NCBI GenBank assembly: GCA_964016885.1
Contig: OZ024742.1
Coordinates: forward strand, 282,348,001 to 282,412,000
Source: Eledone cirrhosa
Lineage: Eukaryota
Length of the DNA: 64,000 nucleotides
Direction of reading: 5' to 3'
Part shown: positions 5,745-59,665 of the stretch, piece after piece
Numbering within the stretch: the first letter of the stretch is position 1
Layout of the letters: the number at the start of each line of letters is the position of its first letter
Translations under genes and position numbers: made by a program
The notes under the pieces: model-generated
The model's input: only the letters and a program-made list of their open reading frames with translations
Databases searched by the model: none
What the model was told of the DNA's origin: nothing

Positions 5745-6758
5745 TTAAAATATATGATAAACACGAAATGTGTTTATATTGCAACAGACAAAGTTAGCTA
5801 TTAATGAAATAAACTAATTAAAGTGAATACAATTTGTCTGTCTCGATATAAGTCAATAAAGACAAGCTTATATTGGCAACGGCCATGATTCCTGGACAGA
5901 TTTAAATTTCAAAATTCAAACCTGTTCTGTAGACGAATTTGAACCTCGAAACCTAAATAAGTTTCGCAACGGTGGAATGTGAATTGAAAAATAAAGGGAA
6001 TCGAAATGGAATAGAAATAAAAGAGTGAAATATCCAAATTAATTAGTTTATTTCATTAATAGCTAACTTTGTCTGTTGCAATATAAACACATTTCGTGTT
6101 TATCATATATTTTAAATGTATTTAACTGCTCGGAAGAGCCCCTTTTCCTGGAGCTTAATTATTGTAAACGACTGAGAGTTTATTCTCAAAATATAATATA
6201 ATGTATGGCTCCTTCATTGTAGAGCTGATCTTTAATCCTGCATAAGCGGCTGTTATTTCTAGCACCGTGAATGTGGGACGGCTAGTTTTGGCCTGCCTAC
6301 ACACGTGTAGTCAGACCTGCAAAATGTTTGATGTGAGATGTACTAATTTTACTGGATTCCTGTTGATAAGCACAGAAGATTTGGATATTTCAATCTTTTA
6401 TTTCTATTCCATTTCGATTCTCTTTATTTTTCAATTCACATTCCACCGTTGCGAAACTTATTTAGGTTTCGAAATTCAAATTCGTCTACAGAACAGGCTT
6501 GAATTTTGAAATTTAAATCTGTCCAGGAATCATGGCCGTTGCCAATATAAGCTTGTCTTTATTGACTTATATCGAGACAGACAAATTGTATTCACTTTAA
6601 TTAGTTTATTTCATTAATAGCTAACTTTGTCTGTTGCAATATAAACACATTTCGTGTTTATCATATATTTTAAATGTATTTAACTGCTCGGAAGAGCCCC
6701 TTTTCCTGGAGCTTAATTATTGTAAACGACTGAGAGTTTATTCTCAAAATATAATATA

Positions 6759-6760
<2 letters not shown>
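5741..6760. mobile_element. Penelope-type pLTR-like remnant: inverted plus direct duplication between (TA)n tracts
   Basis: 5741-6037 is the reverse complement of ~6380-6678. ~6038-6198 is a direct copy of ~6597-6757. Confidence 0.6.
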
Positions 6761-6846
<86 letters not shown>

Positions 6847-6964
6847 GACGTAAGATAAGAAAATTTTAAAATTAACTTGCTTACTAAAATTTAGTACTAA
6901 GACATAATATATATATTTGCTAGCATGGGTATACATCTGTATACACATGTTGGTAGATATACTA

Positions 6965-7006
<42 letters not shown>

Positions 7007-7010
<4 letters not shown>

Positions 7011-7172
7011 AACGAGTAGGACCCCGACGGCTGAGCTCAAGCCGTTTCAACGGCTAATTCTTGAGCTCAGCCGTCGGGGTCCTACTCGTTCCTATTACCC
7101 ACTCTACTACCCTAACTATTGAGTACTTTGGTGCGTTATGGTCCACCTGGTTCCTTACCACATTTCCTTCGT
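7007..7172 (+). mobile_element. short (TA)n-inserted fold-back element (family also at 45190-45395, 56000-56080, 59002-59432, 60414-60497)
   Basis: Hairpin at 7007-7094 plus the shared body attacccactctactacc...ccttaccacatttccttcgtta, flanked by (TA)n. Confidence 0.8.
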
Positions 7173-7190
7173 TATATATATATATATATA

Positions 7191-7371
<181 letters not shown>

Positions 7372-7701
7372 CGGGGTAACAAATTATTGTTATAGGTGTA
7401 GTCCAGTTAGAGTACTCCGAGTAGTGGATGATATCAACGCTTGGCTAAGTTTGACTCAACAAGGCCTTTCCATAGTGATGGTGCGAGTACGCTGTATTTT
7501 CTATGTTGTAAACACTTGGAGTAATAATAAATCAGGAAAGAAGAGTCTCACAAGCTCCGATTTATAACTTTGTATTGGTGATCGAGTAACGTGAAAATAA
7601 GCGGGCAGCGATCTCTAGACCTACCAGTTCAGAGAAACAATTGTCAGCAATGAGATTAAAAACCTTTTTTGTATAGCTAACCGTGTCACTCTTCTTTCCT
7701 G

Positions 7702-7788
<87 letters not shown>

Positions 7789-7891
7789 CTGCCGATTAAC
7801 TCACTCGAGATGCAAATTAGGCTGCTCAGCCGTTAATATGCATAAGGAAAGTATATACTTTCAGACGTTCAATCATCTGGAAGGAAGGTAT

Positions 7892-7934
7892 ACGGTACTG
7901 ACGATAGCGAATAAGCTTGAAACTAGTACATCGT
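7892..7934 (+). ncRNA. type I minimal hammerhead ribozyme motif (copy 1)
   Basis: acggta-CTGACGA-t agc gaataa gct t-GAAA-ctag-TA-catcgt. One A.C mismatch in helix I next to the core. Confidence 0.7.
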
Positions 7935-8313
7935 TCCTTTGTCAGTGTTGAACAAAAGAGCAACGATGGTTGCTAAACACTGTACGGCTTAATTCGAGAT
8001 GTTTGTTTAGAAAAAAACCGAGCATTATAATAAATGTTCGGTGAATCCATACGTACATATGTGTGCATGTATGTATATATATATACATACTACTGTACGT
8101 CTGTATACATATATGTATGTACGTATAATACTTATATTTAAATAACAGCCGTCCTAAGAGTGAGAAATGAAATTTCGTTTCATTTTTTCCATTTATCGTT
8201 TTCGGTGCGCCCGGCCATTAACTCAATCGATATGCAAATTAGGCTGCTCAGCCGTTAATATGCATAAGGAAAGTATATACTTTCAGACGTTCAATCATCT
8301 GGCAGGAAGGTAT

Positions 8314-8356
8314 ACGGTGCTGACGATAGCTAATAAACTTGAAACTAGTACATCGT
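8314..8356 (+). ncRNA. type I minimal hammerhead ribozyme motif (copy 2)
   Basis: acggtg-CTGACGA-tagctaataaactt-GAAA-ctag-TA-catcgt. Helix I is 6 bp, helix III is palindromic, and helix II has a mismatch. Confidence 0.75.
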
Positions 8357-8744
8357 TCCTTTGTCAGTGTTGAACAAAAGGGCAACGATGGTTGCTAAAC
8401 ACTGTACGGCTTAATTCGGGATGTTTGTTTACAAACAAACCGAACATTATAATAAATGTTCGGTGAATCCATACGTACATATATATATGCGTGCATGTAT
8501 GTATATATATATATACATATACTGTACGTCTGTATACATATATGTATGTACGTATACATACTTATATTTAAATAACAGCCGTACTAAGAGTGAGAAATGA
8601 AATTTCGTTTCATTTTTTCCATTTATCATTTTCGGTGCGTCCGGCCGATTAACTCACTCGATATGCAAATTAGGCTGCTCACCCGTTAATATGTATAAGG
8701 AAAGTATATACTTTCAGACGTTCAATCATCTGGCAGGAAGGTAT

Positions 8745-8787
8745 ACGGTGCTGACGATAGTTAATAAGCTTGAAACTAGTACATCGT
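8745..8787 (+). ncRNA. type I minimal hammerhead ribozyme motif (copy 3)
   Basis: acggtg-CTGACGA-t agtt aat aagct t-GAAA-ctag-TA-catcgt. All core nucleotides are intact. Confidence 0.8.
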
Positions 8788-9044
8788 TCCTTTGTCAGTG
8801 TTGAACAAAAGGGCAACAATGTACGGCTTAATTCGGGATGTTTGTTTACAAACAAACCGAACATTATAATAAATGTTCGGTGAATCCATACGTACATATA
8901 TATATGTGTGCATGTATGTATACATATACATACTACTGTACGTCTGTATACATATATGTATGTACGTATACATACTTATATATATATATATATAAATATA
9001 TAAATATATATATAAATACATATATATATATATATATATATACA

Positions 9045-9156
<112 letters not shown>

Positions 9157-9439
9157 TTGTGGGAATTAATTAAGCATTAAGCGTCTTGGCCACAGGATGC
9201 CACGTAGCCGTCGGGGAACAACGGGATACGAACCGACAAAACCTTTGGTTGCTAGATACTCAATCTACAGACTGACTCACGTGACATTTAACAAACGTCA
9301 TCCCCTTCCTCCCACCGTCCCTTTTCAGCGTTCCTCTCTCTTTTCAAGCGAGAAAGTTTTAGTCTCAATCCCACCCATATTAGATTTTAAATGAGATAAA
9401 GACCCCATTCCCTCAACTCACACCATTTAGTTATCACTT

Positions 9440-9945
9440 TCTCTCTCTCTTACTCTCTCTTACTCTCTCTCTCACTCTCTCTCACTCTCTCTCACTTTCT
9501 CTCACTCTCTCTCCATCTCTCTCCCTCTCACTCTTTCTCTGTCTCTCCCTCTCTCTTTGCCTTCCTTTCTCTCTCTCCTTTTCTCTCTTTGTCTCTCTTA
9601 CTGTTCCCTTATTTTTCTCCCTTAATCTCACTCTTAAACTCTCTTGCACACACACCCCTCTCTATTTCTCTCTATCTCTATCTCTATCTATATCTCTCTA
9701 ACAAAAAATTATTGCTAACAATCAGATATACATATAGCCAGATGCCCTTACGGAGAGAGAGAGAGGGTGAGAGAGAGAGAGAGAGAGGGGGTGGAGAGCG
9801 AGACATACATAGAGAATGAGAGATAACAGAGAGAGAGAGAGAGAGAGAGTGATAACAGAGAGAGAGAGACATTCAGAGAGATAACAGAGAGAGAGAGAGA
9901 GAGAGACATAGACACAGAGAGGGAGAGAGATACAGAGAGAGAAAG

Positions 9946-10000
<55 letters not shown>
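9440..10000. repeat. (CT)n then (GA)n microsatellites
   Basis: Seen directly. Confidence 0.9.
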
Positions 10001-10003
<3 letters not shown>

Positions 10004-10119
10004 GTGAGGGAATGAGAGAGTTACATCCACACATTAAAATATTACACATATATAACAAGAGATAAAAACATACAGATACATACATGCATGCAGACATATA
10101 TAAAGCCGAACACACACAT

Positions 10120-11232
10120 ACACATTGAGACATACATAGCTACATACAATGAGATAAACACACACAGACACATTGAGACATACATAGCTATAAACAATGA
10201 GATAAACACACACATATACATACATGCATACACACACAGACACATTGAGACATACATAGCTATATATACAATGAGATAAACACACGCATATACATACATG
10301 TATACACACACAGACACATTGAGACATACATAGCTATATATACAATGAGATAAACACACGCATATACATACATGCATACACACTCAGACACATTGAGACA
10401 TACATAGTTATATATACAATGAGATAAACTCACGCATATACATACATGTATACACACACAGACACATTGAGACATACATAGCTATATATACAATGAAATA
10501 AACACACGCATATACATACATGCATACACACACAGACACATTGAGACATACATAGCTATATATACAATGAAATAAACACACGCATATACATACATGCATA
10601 CACACACAGACACATTGAGACATACATAGCTATATATACAATGAGATAAACACACGCATATACATACATGTATACACACACAGACACATTGAGACATACA
10701 TAGCTATATATACAATGAAATAAACACACGCATATACATACATGCATACACACTCAGACACATTGAGACATACATAGTTATATATACAATGAGATAAACT
10801 CACACATATACATACATGTATACACACACAGACACATTGAGACATACATAGCTATATATACAATGAAATAAACACACGCATATACATACATGCATACACA
10901 CACAGACACATTGAGACATACATAGCTATATATACAATGAAATAAACACACGCATATACATACATGCATACACACACAGACACATTGAGACATACATAGC
11001 TATATATACAATGAGATAAACTCACACATATACATACATGTATACACACACAGACACATTGAGACATACATAGTTATATATACAATGAGATAAACTCACA
11101 CATATACATGCATGCATATACACACAGACACATTGAGACATACATAGTTATATATACAATGAGATAAACTCACACATATACATACATGCATACACACACA
11201 GACACATTGAGACATACATAGCTATATATACA
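10120..11232. repeat. 74-bp minisatellite, ~14 copies, with 370-bp higher-order periodicity
   Basis: cacattgagac recurs every 74 bp from 10241 to 11203. The variant cactcagaca recurs at 10381 and 10751. Confidence 0.92.
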
Positions 11233-18890: not shown

Positions 18891-21800
18891 TGTTTCTTTT
18901 ATTTGCCACTAGGGCATCAAAAGTGGGACAAGTACAAAGGGGGGAGTTTACACAAAAAGGCATCCTCAATAAGGAGGAGGCAATAACAAAATATAAAAAT
19001 AAAATAAGATATAACAAAAAATAAAATTTTTAACAAAATCCTCAATAGAGAGGAGGCGCCTTGGGGGGTCGCACACACCCCCGAATAAAGTGTGCAACCC
19101 TTCTCCTCAGGAGCACAGAGAAGGGGTGCTCCCTTGGTCTTTCATCTTCCTCACCTATAGTCTGATGTAGAGTGAAGGCCCATTCACACGGGCCATTCTC
19201 GCCACTTTCACCCATCTTTCATAGAAACGGCTGGGGTGCAGCACCTCTCTCTCCATCCTGATCCTTCTTCCGAAATGATATCGGAAGAAACGGACCAGTT
19301 GTTGGCCAGAGAGAAAGGTGCCTGACCTCAGTCCTTTCAGACGCGTCCACCATACAACCTCTTTCGCCATGGCTATTACGCACAGAAACACCGCCTCTGC
19401 TTCATCTTTGAAGGGGGGAGGCGGCTTGATCATTACAATAGACTCGGTGGTCAGCAGTTGTTCGACATAGCCCCACAGATCGGCTACGCCCGAGCAGTGT
19501 ACCAATGCGTGTGCAACGGTTTCCTCGTCGCACACGCATCTGGGACAGATCTTTTTGGCGGGGTTCCTACCCGGGCGCCCGTGTCTGTAGAGCCTTTCTC
19601 GAACGGGTAAAGCCCCTCGGTAGCACTGCCAGGCCAGGGACTTCTGGAAGTTGTCCATAGGTCCTGGGCTGAATGTCCTACCGAACAGGCCGGCCAGTTC
19701 GTCCTCCTCCATGTCTAGGGCTTCTCCGAGGGCGTCGTCGCACCTGCTGCGTACCAGCCCTCTATAGAATGTTGCGGTGGAGTCTCCACTGATAACCGGA
19801 TCCGCCTGCCAGAGGGCGGTGAGCGCCTGGGCACACTCAGTGTGCCAGGCGCCCAGTTTTCTCGGTCTTTGCTTGACCCAGGATTGCAGCTCGGTGAGTG
19901 AGACGAGTCTGGGAAAGGTTCGTCTCACAAACGAGGCCCACACCGGTTGTCCGGTGAGGAATACGTAGAGGTGCCGTAGCCTTAATGCGTGTTTACGCAT
20001 CATTAGCCACGGCATCCCCAGCCCTCCTTTCGAAGGGTGTTGACAGCAGATGGATCTCCTCACCATAGGAGCCCGCCTCTTCCAAAGGAATTGGAAGAGC
20101 GCGCGCTCCATCTTGGTGAGGGTTTCCCTTGGGCAGGGCACTACGGTCAGGCGGTAGTAGATGACGGACGCTATGTAGGTGTTCGCCACTTCCGCCCGAC
20201 CTTTCAGGGATAGTTTGCAACTGGCCCACTTCTGGGTCAGTGCAAACACCCTGTTCGTAACCTCCGCCCAGTTTTTCTCCACCTGGAGGTCCGGTCCGAA
20301 CCAGACCCCGAGCAACTTCACCGGGCCCTCCGTCCAGCGTCCGACGACGCTATCGGAGGGCATCGGTCTGCCCCTCCACGTGCCGAGTTGCAAACCGATC
20401 GACTTGTCCCGGTTCAGCTTAGCCCCTGTGAACCTTTCGTACTCCTCCAGTAAGGTGCCGACCGCCTCGATTTTGGAGGCCGTCGACACCATTACTGTCA
20501 CGTCATCGGCGTAGGCCGACACCGCTTTCCGCAATCCCGGTTCCAAGGGGATGCCCTGCAACAACTCCAACTTCCGCAGTAGTGGCTCGAGAGTCAACAC
20601 ATACAGAAGGGAGGAGAGAGGGCACCCTTGTCGGATGGACCGCGCGATTTGGAACGGCTCCGAGAGGTAGCCGTTCACCTTGACCCTAGAGCAGATGCGG
20701 CTGCTGTGCATAGCAGTGATCCAGCCCCTGAAAACGGGTCCGAAGCCTGCCGCCGCTAGCACCGCATCCAGGTAACCATGGTCGACCCTATCGAACGCCT
20801 TAGATTGATCCAAGTTGATCAGAGCCCCACCAAAGCCGGGTTCGTTCCCAACCCTCTCTATGATGTATCGCATGAGGTGGAGGTTGTCATGGATGGACCT
20901 GGACGGGATGGCGCATGTCTGCGCATCTCCCACCAGGTTGCCCACGACAAGCGCCAACCTCTTTGCTAGCACCTTGGCCAAAATCTGTAACTCTGTATTT
21001 AGCAGTGTTATGGGCCTGAAGTTACTTATTTCGTCCCCCTTATTCTCGTCCTTCCTCACTAGCGTGACTACGCCCTTGGTCACAGTACAGGGAATTCTCC
21101 CGTTCTGTTGCCAGTTGCAGTAGACCGCCTCGAGGAGATCGGGGAACAAGTCCGGCATAGCTAGATATAATTCGTAAGGAAGACCATCGAGACCCGGGGA
21201 TTTGCGTTTGCCGCATTGGCTCAGCACGTCCTCTATCTCAGCGGCCGAAATCGGCTCCTCGCAGGACTTCGCCTCCCTGTCCGAGAGGCGCGGCAGGCCG
21301 TCGAGGTATGGACCGAAGTCCACGTTCCCAACCGGCTCCCCGCCCCTCCCGAACAGTCGGGCAAAGTGCCTTTGAAAGGCCTCACACATCTGCTTAGGCT
21401 CAAGAATCGCCCGTCCATCCAGGTCTCGCAAAGACCGGATGGTGGATTTAGTTCCACTGTTGGCCTCTGTCACGCGGGCCCAGCTAACAGCTTTGGTCCC
21501 CTCGTTCCCTAGAGCACGTATTTTACTTCGGACAACGCAGCCTTCGTGCTTCGCGTCGAAAAACTGGCTCAAAGCCGTTCTCGACGCTAGCACTCTGGCC
21601 ACGTCGCCGCTTCTAATTGCCTCTTCTACTCTATCTATTAGCTCCCTTTCCTTCCTATTCCTATCCGCAGCTAGAACCTTACTAAATTCTATCGAGACTA
21701 CTCTAATCTCTCTCTTTAGAGATACCCACCACCTGCTGTTGACGATCGCTCCAGTCAACCGTTCCTTAACTAACGTACTAATCCGATTCCTGTAGGCTCT

Positions 21801-21925
21801 ACTTGCCGGCAAGGACAAGTTGAGCTTCCAGTAACCGGGGCCCTGTCTATGAGTTCTGTCAAGGTTGACCATTTGTGGTCTGAATAGCCAACCATGCGCA
21901 TTTTTGGACAACTTAAAAAGTCCTT
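18891..21925 (-). mobile_element. Tx1/L1-clade LINE copy A, 5'-truncated, in (GATA)n
   Basis: Uninterrupted ORF2 from the APE C-terminus (SDHK, PGYWKLN) to the stop. 3' UTR has AATAAA and both flanks are (TAGA)n. Confidence 0.93.
19155..21911 (-). CDS. Tx1-like ORF2 (RT plus zf-RVT), N-terminally truncated
   Basis: KSPGLDGLP, NFRPITLLN, DQSKAFDRV, IRQGCPLS, AYADDV, GGLGMP and CPRC...ETVAH...C motifs. The annotated Met is not the real start. Confidence 0.93.
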   Translation of the reverse strand: MSKNAHGWLFRPQMVNLDRTHRQGPGYWKLNLSLPASRAYRNRISTLVKERLTGAIVNSRWWVSLKREIRVVSIEFSKVLAADRNRKERELIDRVEEAIRSGDVARVLASRTALSQFFDAKHEGCVVRSKIRALGNEGTKAVSWARVTEANSGTKSTIRSLRDLDGRAILEPKQMCEAFQRHFARLFGRGGEPVGNVDFGPYLDGLPRLSDREAKSCEEPISAAEIEDVLSQCGKRKSPGLDGLPYELYLAMPDLFPDLLEAVYCNWQQNGRIPCTVTKGVVTLVRKDENKGDEISNFRPITLLNTELQILAKVLAKRLALVVGNLVGDAQTCAIPSRSIHDNLHLMRYIIERVGNEPGFGGALINLDQSKAFDRVDHGYLDAVLAAAGFGPVFRGWITAMHSSRICSRVKVNGYLSEPFQIARSIRQGCPLSSLLYVLTLEPLLRKLELLQGIPLEPGLRKAVSAYADDVTVMVSTASKIEAVGTLLEEYERFTGAKLNRDKSIGLQLGTWRGRPMPSDSVVGRWTEGPVKLLGVWFGPDLQVEKNWAEVTNRVFALTQKWASCKLSLKGRAEVANTYIASVIYYRLTVVPCPRETLTKMERALFQFLWKRRAPMVRRSICCQHPSKGGLGMPWLMMRKHALRLRHLYVFLTGQPVWASFVRRTFPRLVSLTELQSWVKQRPRKLGAWHTECAQALTALWQADPVISGDSTATFYRGLVRSRCDDALGEALDMEEDELAGLFGRTFSPGPMDNFQKSLAWQCYRGALPVRERLYRHGRPGRNPAKKICPRCVCDEETVAHALVHCSGVADLWGYVEQLLTTESIVMIKPPPPFKDEAEAVFLCVIAMAKEVVWWTRLKGLRSGTFLSGQQLVRFFRYHFGRRIRMEREVLHPSRFYERWVKVARMARVNGPSLYIRL

Positions 21926-23283: not shown

Positions 23284-25654
23284 CTACAAGATGGTACACA
23301 GAGAAGGCCCATTTACACGAGCCATTCTCGCCACTATCACCCACCTTTCATAAAACTGCCTGTGGCCAAGCACCTCTCTCTCCATTCTTATCCTTCTTCC
23401 GAAGTGATATCGGAAGAAGTAGACCAGACTATGGCCAGAGAGGAAGTTGCCTGACCTCAGACCTTTCAATCGTGTCCACCAAACAACCTCTTTCAACATG
23501 GCTATTACGCACAGAAAAAACCGCCTTTGCTTCCTTTGTGAAGAGGGGAGGCGGTTTGATTGTCATCACGGACTCGGCGGTCAATTTAATCGACGCCACC
23601 CGCGACAGCAGTCGTTCGGCGTAGCCCCACAGATCAGCCACGCCCAGACATTGCACCAATGCGTGCGCAACGGTTTCTTCGTGACGCACGCATCTAGGGC
23701 AAATCTTTTTTGAGGGATCCCTGTGATCGTGTGATTTCGAACGGCTTCGAAAGGTAGCCGTTCACCTTGATCCTAGAACAGATGTGGTTGCTATGTAAGG
23801 CAGTGATCCAGCCTCTGAAAACAGGACCGAACCCAGCCGCCGCTAGCACCGCATCATGGTAACCATGGTCGACCCTATCGAAGGCCTTAGATTGATCCAA
23901 GTTGATGAGGGCCCCACCGAAACCGGGTTTGTTGCCAACCCTCACTATGATGTATCGTATGAGGTGGAGGTTATTGTGAATGGACCTGGATGGGATAGCA
24001 CATGTCTGCGCATCTCCCACCAGGCTACCCACGACAAGCGCCAACCTCTTTGCTAAAACCTTGGCCAAAATCTTTAACTCTGTGTTTAGCAGGGTTATGG
24101 GCCGAAAATTATTTATACTATCCCCCTTGTTCTCGTCCTTCCTCACCAGCGAGACTACGCCCTTGGCTACAGAACAAGGAATTCTCCCGTTCTGCTGCCA
24201 ATTGCAGTAGACCGCTTCGAGGAGTTCGGAGAATAAGACCGGCATTGCTAAATAAAGTTCGTAAGGTATACCATCGAGACCTGGAGATTTGCGTCTGCTG
24301 CATTGGCTCAGCGCATCTCCGATCTCATCAGCCGAGATTGGTCCCTCGCAGGACTCTGCCTCTTCGCTCGAGAGACGCGTCAGGCCGTCGAGGTATGGAC
24401 CGAAATCCACGTCCCCGCCCGGACCCTCGCCTCCCCCGAATAATCGGGCAAAGTGCCTTTGAAAGGCCTCGGACATCTGCTTAGGCTCCCGGATCACCCG
24501 TCCATCCTCGTCTTGCAACGACCGGATGGTGGATCGATTTCCACTCTTAGCTTCTGTCACGCGGGCCCAGCCAACGGCTTTGGCCCCCTCATTACCTAGA
24601 GCACGTATTTTACTTCGAATGACGCAGCCTTCGTGCTTTGCATCGAAAAACTGGTTCAAGGCCGTCCTCGATGCCAGCACTCTGGCCACATCTTCGCTCT
24701 TGATTGCCTCTTCTAATTTACCTGTTAATTATTTCTCGTTTCTATTCCTATCGGCAGCTAACATCTTGCTATAACTTATTGATTCTGTTCTAATCTCTCT
24801 TTTGAGAGATGCCCACCATCGGTTGTTGACGATTGTACCCGTCAACCTCTCCTTAACTAATCTGCTAATCCGGTTTCTGTATGTCTCTTTTGCCGGTAAA
24901 GACAAATTAAGTTTCCAGTAACCGGGACCCTGTTCATGTGTTTTCTCGAGATTGACTACGCAGGTCACTAATTTGTGATCCGTATAGCCAACCGTGCGCA
25001 TTTCTGGACAGCTTAATATGTCCCTATCCTGACTTCTAACTAAGAATTTATCTAAGTACGATCTAGATTGACCACTGTGGTTTCTCCAAGTCCAGGTAGG
25101 CACAGTTGGAAAATCTAGTCGATATCTATCGACCAAGTTAAAACGGTCGAGTAACCCTTGAGGCTGTTACACCCCCCTCTATTAGGACATGCTCCTGCAT
25201 AGTCCCAACGTGCATCTAGGATGTCATTCCAATCCCGCGCTAGAAGCAGGGAACGCGACGTTCCCAGAAAAGTCTCCAAACGCTGGAAGAAGTCGGGCCG
25301 TTCAACTCCGGAAGGGGAGTAGACGGCGACCAGTCTCAAGGCCGCACCTTCACTACTGCCAACGTCTAGCACCAACAAACGACCCTCCGGGTCCGAGTGA
25401 ACAACCTGTACGGCAAGACCCAGGTGTTTTTGCAGCAGTACGACAACCCCACCCCCACCTCTAGGTTGACAGAGAGATGCATGCACCACAAAGTCATCGA
25501 AGGTAGGGGTCAGCTGCCGCACGACGCTGATCCGAGTCTCACAGATAACCATTACATTTATACCACATGACCTGAGGTCATTTAGAAGCTTTGTTTGCTT
25601 CCAAGTTGAGCCCAGGCCACGTGCATTCAAACATCCTACTCTTAACACGTCCAT
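23284..25654 (-). pseudogene. frameshifted, internally deleted ORF2 (APE-RT) of Tx1 copy C
   Basis: APE motifs (SYLDKF, TDHK), RT domains up to DQSKAFDRV, and a C-terminal WWTR motif. Confidence 0.85.
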
Positions 25655-33130: not shown

Positions 33131-33937
33131 TCAGATATTCAGGACGTATCGGAGGGTTCTTGCTGTTCCAAGCAAGCATGCCTTTTGAAGCGTTCCAAAA
33201 AGCGTGAAGGGGCCGATTTTCTTTAACCATCCCTGGAAACCTTTGGAGATAGTCCCCAGTGCGCCTATGACAATCGGGATCACTTTGACTTCATGGCAGT
33301 TCCAAATTCTTTTCACCTCCCACTTTAGGTCCTGGTATCGGTTAATTTTCTCCCTCTCCTTCTCTTGCACTCTCGTGTCGAACGGGCAGGCCACATCCAC
33401 AATCAGACACGATCTTTTTTCTTTGTCCACAACCACCAGGTCAGGTCTATTGTGTTCCAGTTTTTTGTCCGTCTGTATCCTAAAATCCCACAGCACCTTC
33501 ACCTGATTGTTCTCCATCACCGCCTCTGGCCTATGCTCATACCATTTCTCAGAATGTGGTAATTTGTTTACTTTGCACAGGTGCCAGTGGATCACCCTGC
33601 CCATCACATCGTGTCTCCAGCCCTTATAGTGGGTCTGGGCTAGGTGTTTACACTCGGACACAATGTGAGCCACAGTCTCCTCTCTCTCTCCACAGATCCT
33701 GCACAGTGGGCTAGCCTCCTCCTTGTAGATATGGTGCTTCAACCACTTCGTTTTGAGGGCCTGCTCCTGCGCAGCCATTAGCATTCCTTCTGTAGCCTTT
33801 TTGAGGTCTCTTTTTCTCAACCAGTTCCATGTCTGTGGATCTCTAAATTCAGTTTTCTCAAAGAAGGTACTATGAAGGGATTTTCCCTTAAGGCTGCTCT
33901 TCCTCCTTGATGTTATTTCCTCCTTGGACATCCCCAC
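33131..33937 (-). CDS. R4/Dong-like C-terminal ORF fragment (CCHC + REL endonuclease)
   Basis: CRICGEREETVAHIVSEC, RHD, RPDLV, DVACPFD and KINRYQDL motifs. Confidence 0.88.
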   Translation of the reverse strand: MGMSKEEITSRRKSSLKGKSLHSTFFEKTEFRDPQTWNWLRKRDLKKATEGMLMAAQEQALKTKWLKHHIYKEEASPLCRICGEREETVAHIVSECKHLAQTHYKGWRHDVMGRVIHWHLCKVNKLPHSEKWYEHRPEAVMENNQVKVLWDFRIQTDKKLEHNRPDLVVVDKEKRSCLIVDVACPFDTRVQEKEREKINRYQDLKWEVKRIWNCHEVKVIPIVIGALGTISKGFQGWLKKIGPFTLFGTLQKACLLGTARTLRYVLNI

Positions 33938-33979
<42 letters not shown>

Positions 33980-34343
33980 TCCTTTTAAATCTCAGTCATT
34001 GATGTTGGTTAAATGGAAAGTCCGTTGGAATGAATATCAAGCCACTCAGATATTCAGGACGTATCGGAGGGTTCTTGCTGTTCCCAGCAAGCATGCCTTT
34101 TGAAGCGTTCCAAAAAGCGTGAAGGGGACGATTTTCTTTAACCATCCCTGGAAACTTTTGGAGACAGTCCCCAGTGCGCCTATGACAATCGGGATCACTT
34201 TGACTTCATGGCAGTTCCAAATCTTTTTTACCTCCCACTTTAAGTCCTGGTATCGGTTAATTATTATTATTATTATTATTGTTGTTTTTATTCCTTGAAT
34301 CTCAGTCATTGATGTTGGTTAACTGGAAAGTCCGTTGGAATGA

Positions 34344-38759: not shown

Positions 38760-41216
38760 ATTTCAACTGACCTCACTCAGAATAGGCAGCATAAATGCGC
38801 GTGGCTTGGGGTCGTCATGGAAGCAGGGCCATCTGCTCAACGACCTCAGGTCACTAAACATAGATGTAGTGGCCATCAGCGAGACCAGAATCTCCGAAGG
38901 TACGGGCCTTCGCACCGATCTTCGGCGGCTACGACGTGTACACATCTCCCAGCCATCCTGGATCGGGGGGGAGGAGTTGCTGTGCTTTTTCGGAGAGGTT
39001 TGGATCTCGCCATACGGGCCATCTTCCTAGACCCAGAGGGTAAGCTGGTGGTGCTGGACGTGACCAGCGGAGACGGGCAAGCTTTCAGGCTAGTGGCCGT
39101 CTATGCCCCGACAGGAGCAGGGCGGCCTGATTACTTCCGGCGTCTGGAGACCTTTCTTGGAACGTCCCCCTCTTTAGTTTTAGTGGCGACTGGAAGGGGA
39201 TCTTAGATGCACGCTGGGACTGTGTGGGATTAGCGGATAGGGGAGGAGGGTGCAAGAGCCTCACCAACCTGCTCAGGCGTTTTGGACTGTCTGACAGGTA
39301 CCGATTGGATTTCCCGAATGTGCCAATGTGGACTTGGACAAACCGTATCGGGTCATCCAGATCATATCTAGATAGAGTATTTTGTAGGGAAATAGATAGG
39401 TGTAGCATCGGCTGTCCACAATTCAAGATAGTCAGCTACACGGACCACAAATTCGTGATCTGTGTGCTTGACTTAGATAGGCTTCATAGACGAGGACCCG
39501 GCTACTGGAAGCTAAACGCGTCCTTACCAGCGCGCAAGGCGTACAGAGACTGGATTAGCGAACTAGTTAAGTGGGCGTTGACGGGGGCCATCGTCAACAA
39601 CAAGTGGTGGTTTGCTCTGAAAAGAGCGATTAGAATAGAGTCCATTAAGTTTAGTAAGGCTTTAGCAATAGAGAAAAATAGAGCAGAGGGAGAACTAGTT
39701 AGAAAATTAGACGAGGCGCTTAGCAAAGGCATCGCGACCGACGTACTTGCGGCGAAATTGGCCCTTGACCAATTCTTCAATGCAAAGCACGTGGCTGCGT
39801 TGTCAGTGCTAGGGTACGTTCTCTCAGACAGGAGGGGACGAAAGTCGTTCAATGGGCCCGAGTGGCGGAGGCGCGTCGTGGCAACAAAGCCACGATCCGG
39901 TCTTTGGTGGACCACGACGGGGGTATGCTACTCGATCCCGGGCAAATGTGTGAAGCTTTTCAGCGACACTTCGCTCAGCTGTTCGGGGGAAGCGGCGGGC
40001 CGGGTCGAGGGATGGAGTTTAGTGTCTACCTCGACGGACTGCCGCGGCTCCCGGCCACTGAGGCGGAGTGGTGCGAAAAGCCGATAACAGCCGCTGATGT
40101 ACGGGAGGCAATGACTGGCTGCACAAGGGGTAAATCGCCTGGTTTGGAAGCTCTGCCCTATGAACTTTACGTACAGATGCCAGACTTGTTCGGAGGCCTC
40201 TTGGCGGACGTCTACTGCAACTGGCAACAGAACGGGAGAATTCTCAGCTCTGTGAGCCGAAGAGCGGTGGCGCTGCTGAGAAAGGATACGAACAAGGGGG
40301 AAAACATAGATAATTTTAGGCCCATAACTCTGCTAAACACAGAGTTCAAGATTTTGGCCAAGGTACTAGCAAAGAGGTTGGCGCCTGTCGTTGGTGGTCT
40401 GGTGGGAGAGGCGCAGACATGCGCCATTCCCGACAGATCCATCCACGACAACCTCCACCTCATGCGATACATTGTAGAGAGGGTAGCTAGGGAACCGCCC
40501 AAAACTGGGACGAGGTGACGAGCAGGGTGGCTTCTCTCACCCAGAAGTGGGCGGAAAGGAAGCTATCCCTGAAAGGTCGAGCGGAGGTGGCTAACGCGTA
40601 CATGGCGTCCGTCATCTACCGTCGTACCTTGACCTAAGCCCCGCCTGACTGAGCTGGAGCGTTTGCTCTTTCGCTTTTTGTTGAAGAGACGCGCTCCGAT
40701 TGTCAGGCGGTCCATCTGCTGTGAACACCCGCTACGTGGAGGGCTGGGCATGCCGTGGCTGATGATGCGCAGACACGCGCTCAGGCTACGACATCTCCAC
40801 CTCGCAGATGCTCGCAGGGCGACGAAACCGTCCTGCACGCACTCGTCCTGTGTCCGAGCATTTCTGACTTGTGGGTTTATGTCGAACACCTGCTGTCACG
40901 TGTAGGACGGATCCAGCTATGAACTGAGTCCATCGTGTGGATCGCCCCGCCCTCTTCCTTTAGCCGGGAAGGGCAGGCAGTTTCTATCTGGCTGGTGGCC
41001 ATGGCGAAAGAGATAGTATGGTGGACACGTTTGAAAGGGCTGAAGACGAGCACTTACCTCTTCGGTGATGCCCTGATTAACTTTTTCAAATTTCATTTGA
41101 AAAGGAAAATCAGGGTAGAGAGGGAAGTGCTCTCTTCCCAGCATTTTGTTGAAAGATGGGTGAGAGAAGCAAGAATGGGCCGAGTGAATGGGCCTACTCT
41201 GAGTATGTGTCTGTAA
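38760..41216 (+). pseudogene. frameshifted, internally deleted ORF2 of Tx1 copy E
   Basis: Multiple frames match the ORF2 of copies A and C. Confidence 0.85.
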
Positions 41217-54753: not shown

Positions 54754-55549
<796 letters not shown>

Positions 55550-59600: not shown

Positions 59601-59665
59601 TATTTCATTATACATATTTCAAGGACACCAAGTAAAATTATGGTGTGCTTTCATCAGATAAAATA
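59601..59665 (-). ncRNA. type I hammerhead motif within an inverted repeat (59558-59813)
   Basis: Minus strand reads tattttat-CTGATGA-aagcacacca (10-nt loop) tggtgtcctt-GAAA-tatgta-TA-atgaaata. Confidence 0.75.

Follow-up and report, generated by a model that had tools for sequence, protein, structure and literature searches.

How does a short DNA unit that carries a hammerhead motif come to lie head to tail inside a TA repeat? The question is raised by a tandem array in a 64,000-nt stretch of the Eledone cirrhosa genome (hereafter the window), and it touches a wider one, as both the mobiliser of animal retrozymes and their circular template have been proposed yet are open in the literature cited here. 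The array is an aged insertion of a non-coding repeat with a hammerhead motif in each unit. On balance, a reverse transcriptase borrowed from a Penelope-like element probably placed it into the TA repeat, and circular RNA is the most likely template.

The whole insertion spans positions 7791..8979 of the forward strand, to which all features of the unit belong, and consists of a single arm of 2.8 units. It is truncated at its 5' end, finishes at the short one of the family's two start sites and has neither an inverted arm nor a tail. The corresponding tandem repeat (about 7791-8988, period 422 bp, 2.8 copies, 93% matches) is flanked by a (TA)n tract upstream (7705..7786) and a (TA)n-rich tract downstream (8980..9154), both without assigned strand. 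This bears out the insertion into (TA)n described in a first-pass annotation of this DNA, which had also counted three units of about 425 bp; the tandem arrangement stands, but the third unit is partial and carries a 14-nt deletion. Open reading frames in the array are short and of low complexity, in agreement with the earlier statement that none is credible, and GC content over positions 8001-9000 is 0.336, below the 45% that delimits non-LTR retrozymes. The three CTGACGA cores were found again (7898, 8320 and 8751, with GAAA, CTAG and TA after each), as were the predicted cuts after 7928, 8350 and 8781 and the resulting monomers of 422 nt (7929..8350) and 431 nt (8351..8781). One loose core or more appeared in just 12 of 2000 shuffled sequences. 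Folded as circles, the monomers reach -112.1 kcal/mol (z -5.2) and -128.7 kcal/mol (z -7.5), z-scores to which a long TA/CA-rich hairpin within the unit (approximately 8465..8560) contributes largely. Fold prediction depicts both as extensively paired with themselves while the hammerhead is left able to form, and the same hairpin is the source of much length variation among subfamilies.

Preservation of the ribozyme differs among the three units. The first hammerhead (7877..7945) reads ACGGTA in its helix I strand, which gives an A.C closing pair, and two further pairs are broken; helix II of the second (8299..8367) contains a single C.A mismatch, and every modelled pair is kept in the third alone (8730..8798). 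The helix I pairing acggtg/catcgt that had been ascribed to each unit is thus altered in the first. The insertion belongs to an older subfamily and is an aged, ordinary decayed copy of its family; as two of its three ribozymes are also damaged, the family probably did not originate from this locus.

A consensus ribozyme was modelled on 208 copies from the first 150 loci, part of which were selected by their core, so that conservation of the core is biased in that set. Helix I has 6 bp followed by an internal loop and 4 + 6 further pairs, helix II has 4 bp with a 4-nt loop and sits on a U.U mismatch (207 of 208 copies), and helix III is a single pair closed by the palindrome CUAG, with the predicted cut after GUA. 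Such a helix III with its palindromic tetraloop would probably lead to cleavage as dimers, and the CUAG duplex has a computed energy of -4.8 kcal/mol. Position 3 of helix I is paired in 196 of the 208 copies, chiefly as U.G (110), G.U (67) or A-U (14), and compensatory changes in this helix occur among the subfamilies, of which there are at least four. One upper pair has changed from A-U to U.G in 10 copies, yet is broken in 13 others, and the covariation reflects a few inherited events. Core and both helices are kept together in 60 of 109 sampled copies. Rfam covariance models, which the first-pass annotation had proposed as a check, did not recover the hammerhead: no hammerhead family occurs among 84 matches with E up to 1 in region 6000-11000, and the matches in the array region, microRNA-like hairpins below threshold, were rejected.

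The same annotation had called the motif a minimal type I hammerhead, a description that does not fit a ribozyme whose 6-bp helix I is continued by 10 more base pairs beyond an internal loop and whose 4-bp helix II rests on a U.U mismatch. Minimal hammerheads of Penelope repeats (PMC4209133) resemble the unit in being type I with a palindromic helix III and expected dimer action, but are described there with a helix II of 7-8 bp, a helix I of 4-5 bp and a poorly defined loop 1, none of which applies here. Judged by its predicted pairing, the unit ribozyme is instead of the canonical metazoan or retrozyme type I, and it fits the canonical type of that paper. It shares the one-pair helix III with palindromic tetraloop with axolotl HHR_Amex1 and the U.U at the base of helix II with HHR_Amex2, for both of which poor cleavage of the monomer and stronger cleavage of the dimer are reported (PMC7229834). 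Unlike in either axolotl ribozyme, both weak features are united in one molecule here, and these, together with the damage in two of the three window copies, count against the preferred reading.

The array is one member of a family dispersed at high copy, from monomers through multimers. Genome-wide (3.0 Gb), the exact core pattern has 28,334 matches against 3 for a reversed-pattern control, a lower bound on motifs rather than a count of insertions, and cut-to-cut monomers range from 396 to 538 nt (59 distinct). The family would represent a sizeable and probably unannotated fraction of the genome that is missed by Rfam. Four subfamilies, each 1.9-2.9% from its own majority sequence, account for 217 of 230 copies. 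None of their 44 diagnostic columns falls in the 16 core columns (p 0.07, not significant alone), and in loci picked by their 3' end alone changes in the core are rarer (21/1487, 1.4%) than elsewhere (536/20903, 2.6%; p 0.004). Together these observations point to selection on the templates. In young subfamilies, units differ by 0.3% and 1.8% within an insertion versus 3.1% and 3.7% between loci, while in old ones the values are equal (5.4% and 5.7% versus 5.5% and 5.5%; 5.4% versus 5.5% in the subfamily of the window copy). Such a pattern is expected if tandems arose at insertion and then decayed. At four loci (L115, L008, L009, L082), units or arms come from two subfamilies, as template switching or nested insertion would produce.

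The ends of the insertions provide the main evidence for the enzyme involved. The 3' ends of family members fall at either of two fixed positions within the unit, which lie roughly 60 nt from each other and more than 200 nt downstream of the cut, and the sequence then passes directly into (TA)n. In the window unit, the stretch between the two ends, or tail, corresponds to 8566..8626, with the short end at 8565 (equivalent to 8979) and the long end at 8626 (equivalent to 8196). Exact junctions between these ends and (TA)n number 3,744 genome-wide for the short site and 2,810 for the long site, with 0 for controls; insertions begin at two internal sites and not at the ribozyme cut. Arms were followed in the first 90 of the 2,810 tail-ended matches listed, all on contig C1. 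An inverted arm lies on the 5' side in 44 of these 90 loci, and in 38 of the 44 its end coincides with the short site. Penelope-like elements are known to form such inverted arms, along with partial tandems and a tail on one side only, and to use (TA)n as target (10.1101/2021.04.23.441226). For a Penelope-like enzyme, the tail has been shown to span the distance between the two internal positions at which reverse transcription starts (PMC11167929). The same pattern of two ends in (TA)n recurs in two autonomous Penelope-like families of this genome. Read against these reports, the genome-wide anatomy supports the earlier view of a non-autonomous, hammerhead-bearing and Penelope-mobilised family. 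The likeness extends to Poseidon PAc (PMC11167929), Neptune and Naiad (10.1101/2021.04.23.441226), which are described with two internal starts, a one-sided tail, an inverted 5'-truncated arm, partial tandems and AT-rich or (TA)n targets. The present family differs from them in having no ORF and a tail of about 60 nt instead of 30-40.

A possible course of events would begin with transcription of tandem loci, after which the hammerheads would cut, probably as dimers, and monomers of about 420-430 nt would be ligated into circles. A Penelope-like protein would then nick (TA)n, prime reverse transcription at one of the two internal sites and copy round the circle more than once, and priming from the other site would give an inverted arm without a tail.

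Of the 90 arms, 59 cross the cut site, 50 are longer than one unit and 11 cross a second cut, and just 3 terminate at a distance of 5 nt or less from a cut, although 43 of the ends lie in the TA-rich part, where placement is poor. Neighbouring units share their subfamily in 62 of 66 pairs (0.28 by chance), and inverted arms agree in 31 of 38 cases. Rare variants common to all covering copies of an insertion number 36 (18 of them spanning both arms), against 462 private ones. Arms that run through the cut, units and arms of one subfamily and shared variants together show that a single template, continuous across the cut, lies behind each insertion, either a circle or an uncut multimer. The shared variants may have been present at the source locus; A-to-G changes are in no excess among them (5/36 versus 51/462, p 0.58), and RNA-editing marks repeated in each unit were not seen in the sample, which consists mostly of older subfamilies. 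Linear cut monomers were rejected as the main template, given the 3 of 90 stops near a cut and a genome-wide excess of 5' ends there that is far below the expected peak. That excess is slight, with 38 exact 5' junctions at the cut versus 22 and 21 at two control sites (p 0.05 and 0.04), and inspection by eye retained as true 5' ends about 25/33 cases at the cut and 20/22 and about 12/15 distinct cases at the controls. Some templates may accordingly have been linear and partly cut.

Rolling-circle copying of a circular RNA is compatible with these data, but DNA evidence alone cannot tell a circle from an uncut multimer. The same element could have been inserted by the same enzyme from a linear transcript, multimeric and uncut, that was made at a tandem source locus, with the hammerhead kept for the release or ending of transcripts, for example; this we regard as a serious though rather doubtful alternative. 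It fits the ends, the arms and the single template equally well, and the slight excess of 5' ends at the cut agrees with it. A Penelope-like enzyme studied in vitro is reported to use mainly uncut RNA and to need no cleavage for insertion (PMC11167929), and the weak helices II and III should make cutting slow. Among frog retrozyme dimers, cleavage is reported for only 1 of 9 (10.64898/2026.07.22.740005). Long arrays resembling such a source exist, as in L196 with at least 17 units. However, the near-identical units of young insertions would need a very uniform source array, and circular RNAs have been demonstrated for the retrozymes of coral, mussel and axolotl (PMC7229834), which favours the circle.

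Alternatively, an autonomous Penelope-like element that has yet to be discovered could have left the units behind as orphan terminal repeats, with arrays expanded later in place as in a satellite. We consider this improbable. In Xenopus, 24 of 57 retrozyme families have been linked to known elements, nearly all Penelope-like, and local amplification is discussed (10.64898/2026.07.22.740005), while our search for a parent spanned three families only. The long arrays of L196 and L197 (at least 17 and at least 11 units) contain some units that share variants, suggesting later local expansion as local duplication would produce, and in the window units 2 and 3 differ by 2.6%, closer to each other than either is to unit 1 (4.5% and 5.7%). 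In the subfamily of the window copy, however, divergence within arrays equals that between loci, which makes most tandems as old as the insertion, and the four subfamilies have evolved as pure units. The first-pass annotation had proposed to look for units abutting a Penelope ORF, and no such fusion was found in 60 + 10 loci, where units abut head to tail without an ORF. Nor does an ORF with reverse transcriptase and GIY-YIG domains lie between the repeats, as it would in an autonomous element. No sequence shared with the unit was found in the three Penelope-like families examined (39 + 24 loci). An apparent likeness of the unit to the 3' region of PLE-A, the most abundant of them, was discarded because its score of 31-35 lies below the shuffle maxima of 40-43. 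Pairs of hammerheads 2-7 kb apart at four loci proved to be separate insertions. Mobilisation by a LINE, for which LINE-type reverse transcriptase ORFs in the window might be cited, or a motif that is a chance feature of a satellite, is very improbable and strongly disfavoured in view of the Penelope features (two internal starts, one-sided tail, inverted arms) and of a motif that is both conserved and covarying.

If the insertions are attributed to a Penelope-like enzyme copying ribozyme-made circles, the same genome offers a putative source for it. PLE-C (loci L216-L221) is a young family arranged in tandems of 4.2 kb. It contains many 775-aa frames that are almost identical to one another and carry reverse transcriptase and GIY-YIG domains. 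Its cysteine-rich linker, as found in Neptune elements, suggests to us that it is Neptune-like. The hammerhead in its terminal repeat shares the layout of the retrozyme, as helix II stands on a U.U and helix III has a palindromic tetraloop, and by this likeness PLE-C would be the best partner candidate. Perhaps, then, the insertions are the fossil record of a Penelope-like enzyme, PLE-C itself, that circled a ribozyme-made RNA from two starts, one for each DNA strand; as a whole, this proposal is tentative. Were PLE-C indeed the enzyme, it would supply a ready enzyme-template pair for studying retrozyme movement. The two other Penelope-like families differ in their terminal repeats. PLE-A (loci L152-L170, L222, L223) is extremely abundant, with 358,507 first-look candidates; its two ends in (TA)n are separated by about 90 nt, and a standard hammerhead core was not seen in its terminal repeat. 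The third family (loci L184 and L187) has a hammerhead-like stretch in the terminal repeat 3' of the ORF, in which GAAA, helix I and the palindromic loop are present and the first core strand is non-standard. In protein searches with two elements, one had relatives in bivalves only and the other in no animal.

The class to which the family belongs, and its link to Penelope-like elements, is already published (PMC7229834; 10.64898/2026.07.22.740005). Metazoan non-LTR retrozymes of coral, mussel and axolotl (Rtz331 and Rtz353) share with it short non-coding tandem units of low GC, a canonical type I hammerhead in each unit and tens of thousands of copies (PMC7229834). Units here are longer (420-540 nt versus 170-400 nt in that paper) and known from DNA alone. 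Penelope mobilisation is proposed there from co-occurrence, and insertion ends are not described in the portions of that paper drawn on here. The bioRxiv study (10.64898/2026.07.22.740005) arrives at the same class of partner, and its range of 51-972 bp includes the present unit length; its basis is co-occurrence and terminal-repeat homology, mostly in vertebrates, whereas the present case builds on insertion anatomy, and no homologous parent was found. For the giant squid, the genome paper gives no more than a tally of 235 Rfam hammerheads. A literature search returned no account of cephalopod retrozymes, of how retrozyme insertions end or of the present family, although supplementary lists may contain such a family. 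The earlier suggestion of a family possibly undescribed in this lineage is therefore sustained to the extent that no paper on a cephalopod retrozyme was found, but the class itself is not new. What the family adds is genomic Penelope-type insertion footprints on a retrozyme, with mapped start sites and both young and old subfamilies. Since footprints, start sites and a candidate intact enzyme occur in one genome, the question of mobilisation becomes testable in vitro.

Other repeats were noted in the window and in the sampled loci. A second retrozyme-like family (L051:2500-3030 and L052) has a 310-bp period and back-to-back arms; in its hammerhead, helix II stands on a U.U and the palindrome of helix III is CGCG. 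The window also holds hammerhead-like cores that belong to other families, at 59657, 57334, 57061 and 14773 on the reverse strand and at 55113 on the forward strand, and several of them recur in sampled loci. Upstream of the array, another (TA)n-inserted repeat (7009-7170) includes a perfect inverted repeat (7007-7094) and has relatives in 43 of 293 sampled loci, and a further repeat between TA tracts (7372-7704) has relatives in 6 of 293. The LINE-type ORFs mentioned above, whole or fragmentary and matching Pfam RVT_1 or zf-RVT, are located at 19155-21923, 23694-24728 and 33131-33991 on the reverse strand and at 39769-40518 on the forward strand, and a minisatellite of 74 bp occupies 10158-11232 with 14.6 copies and 95% matches.
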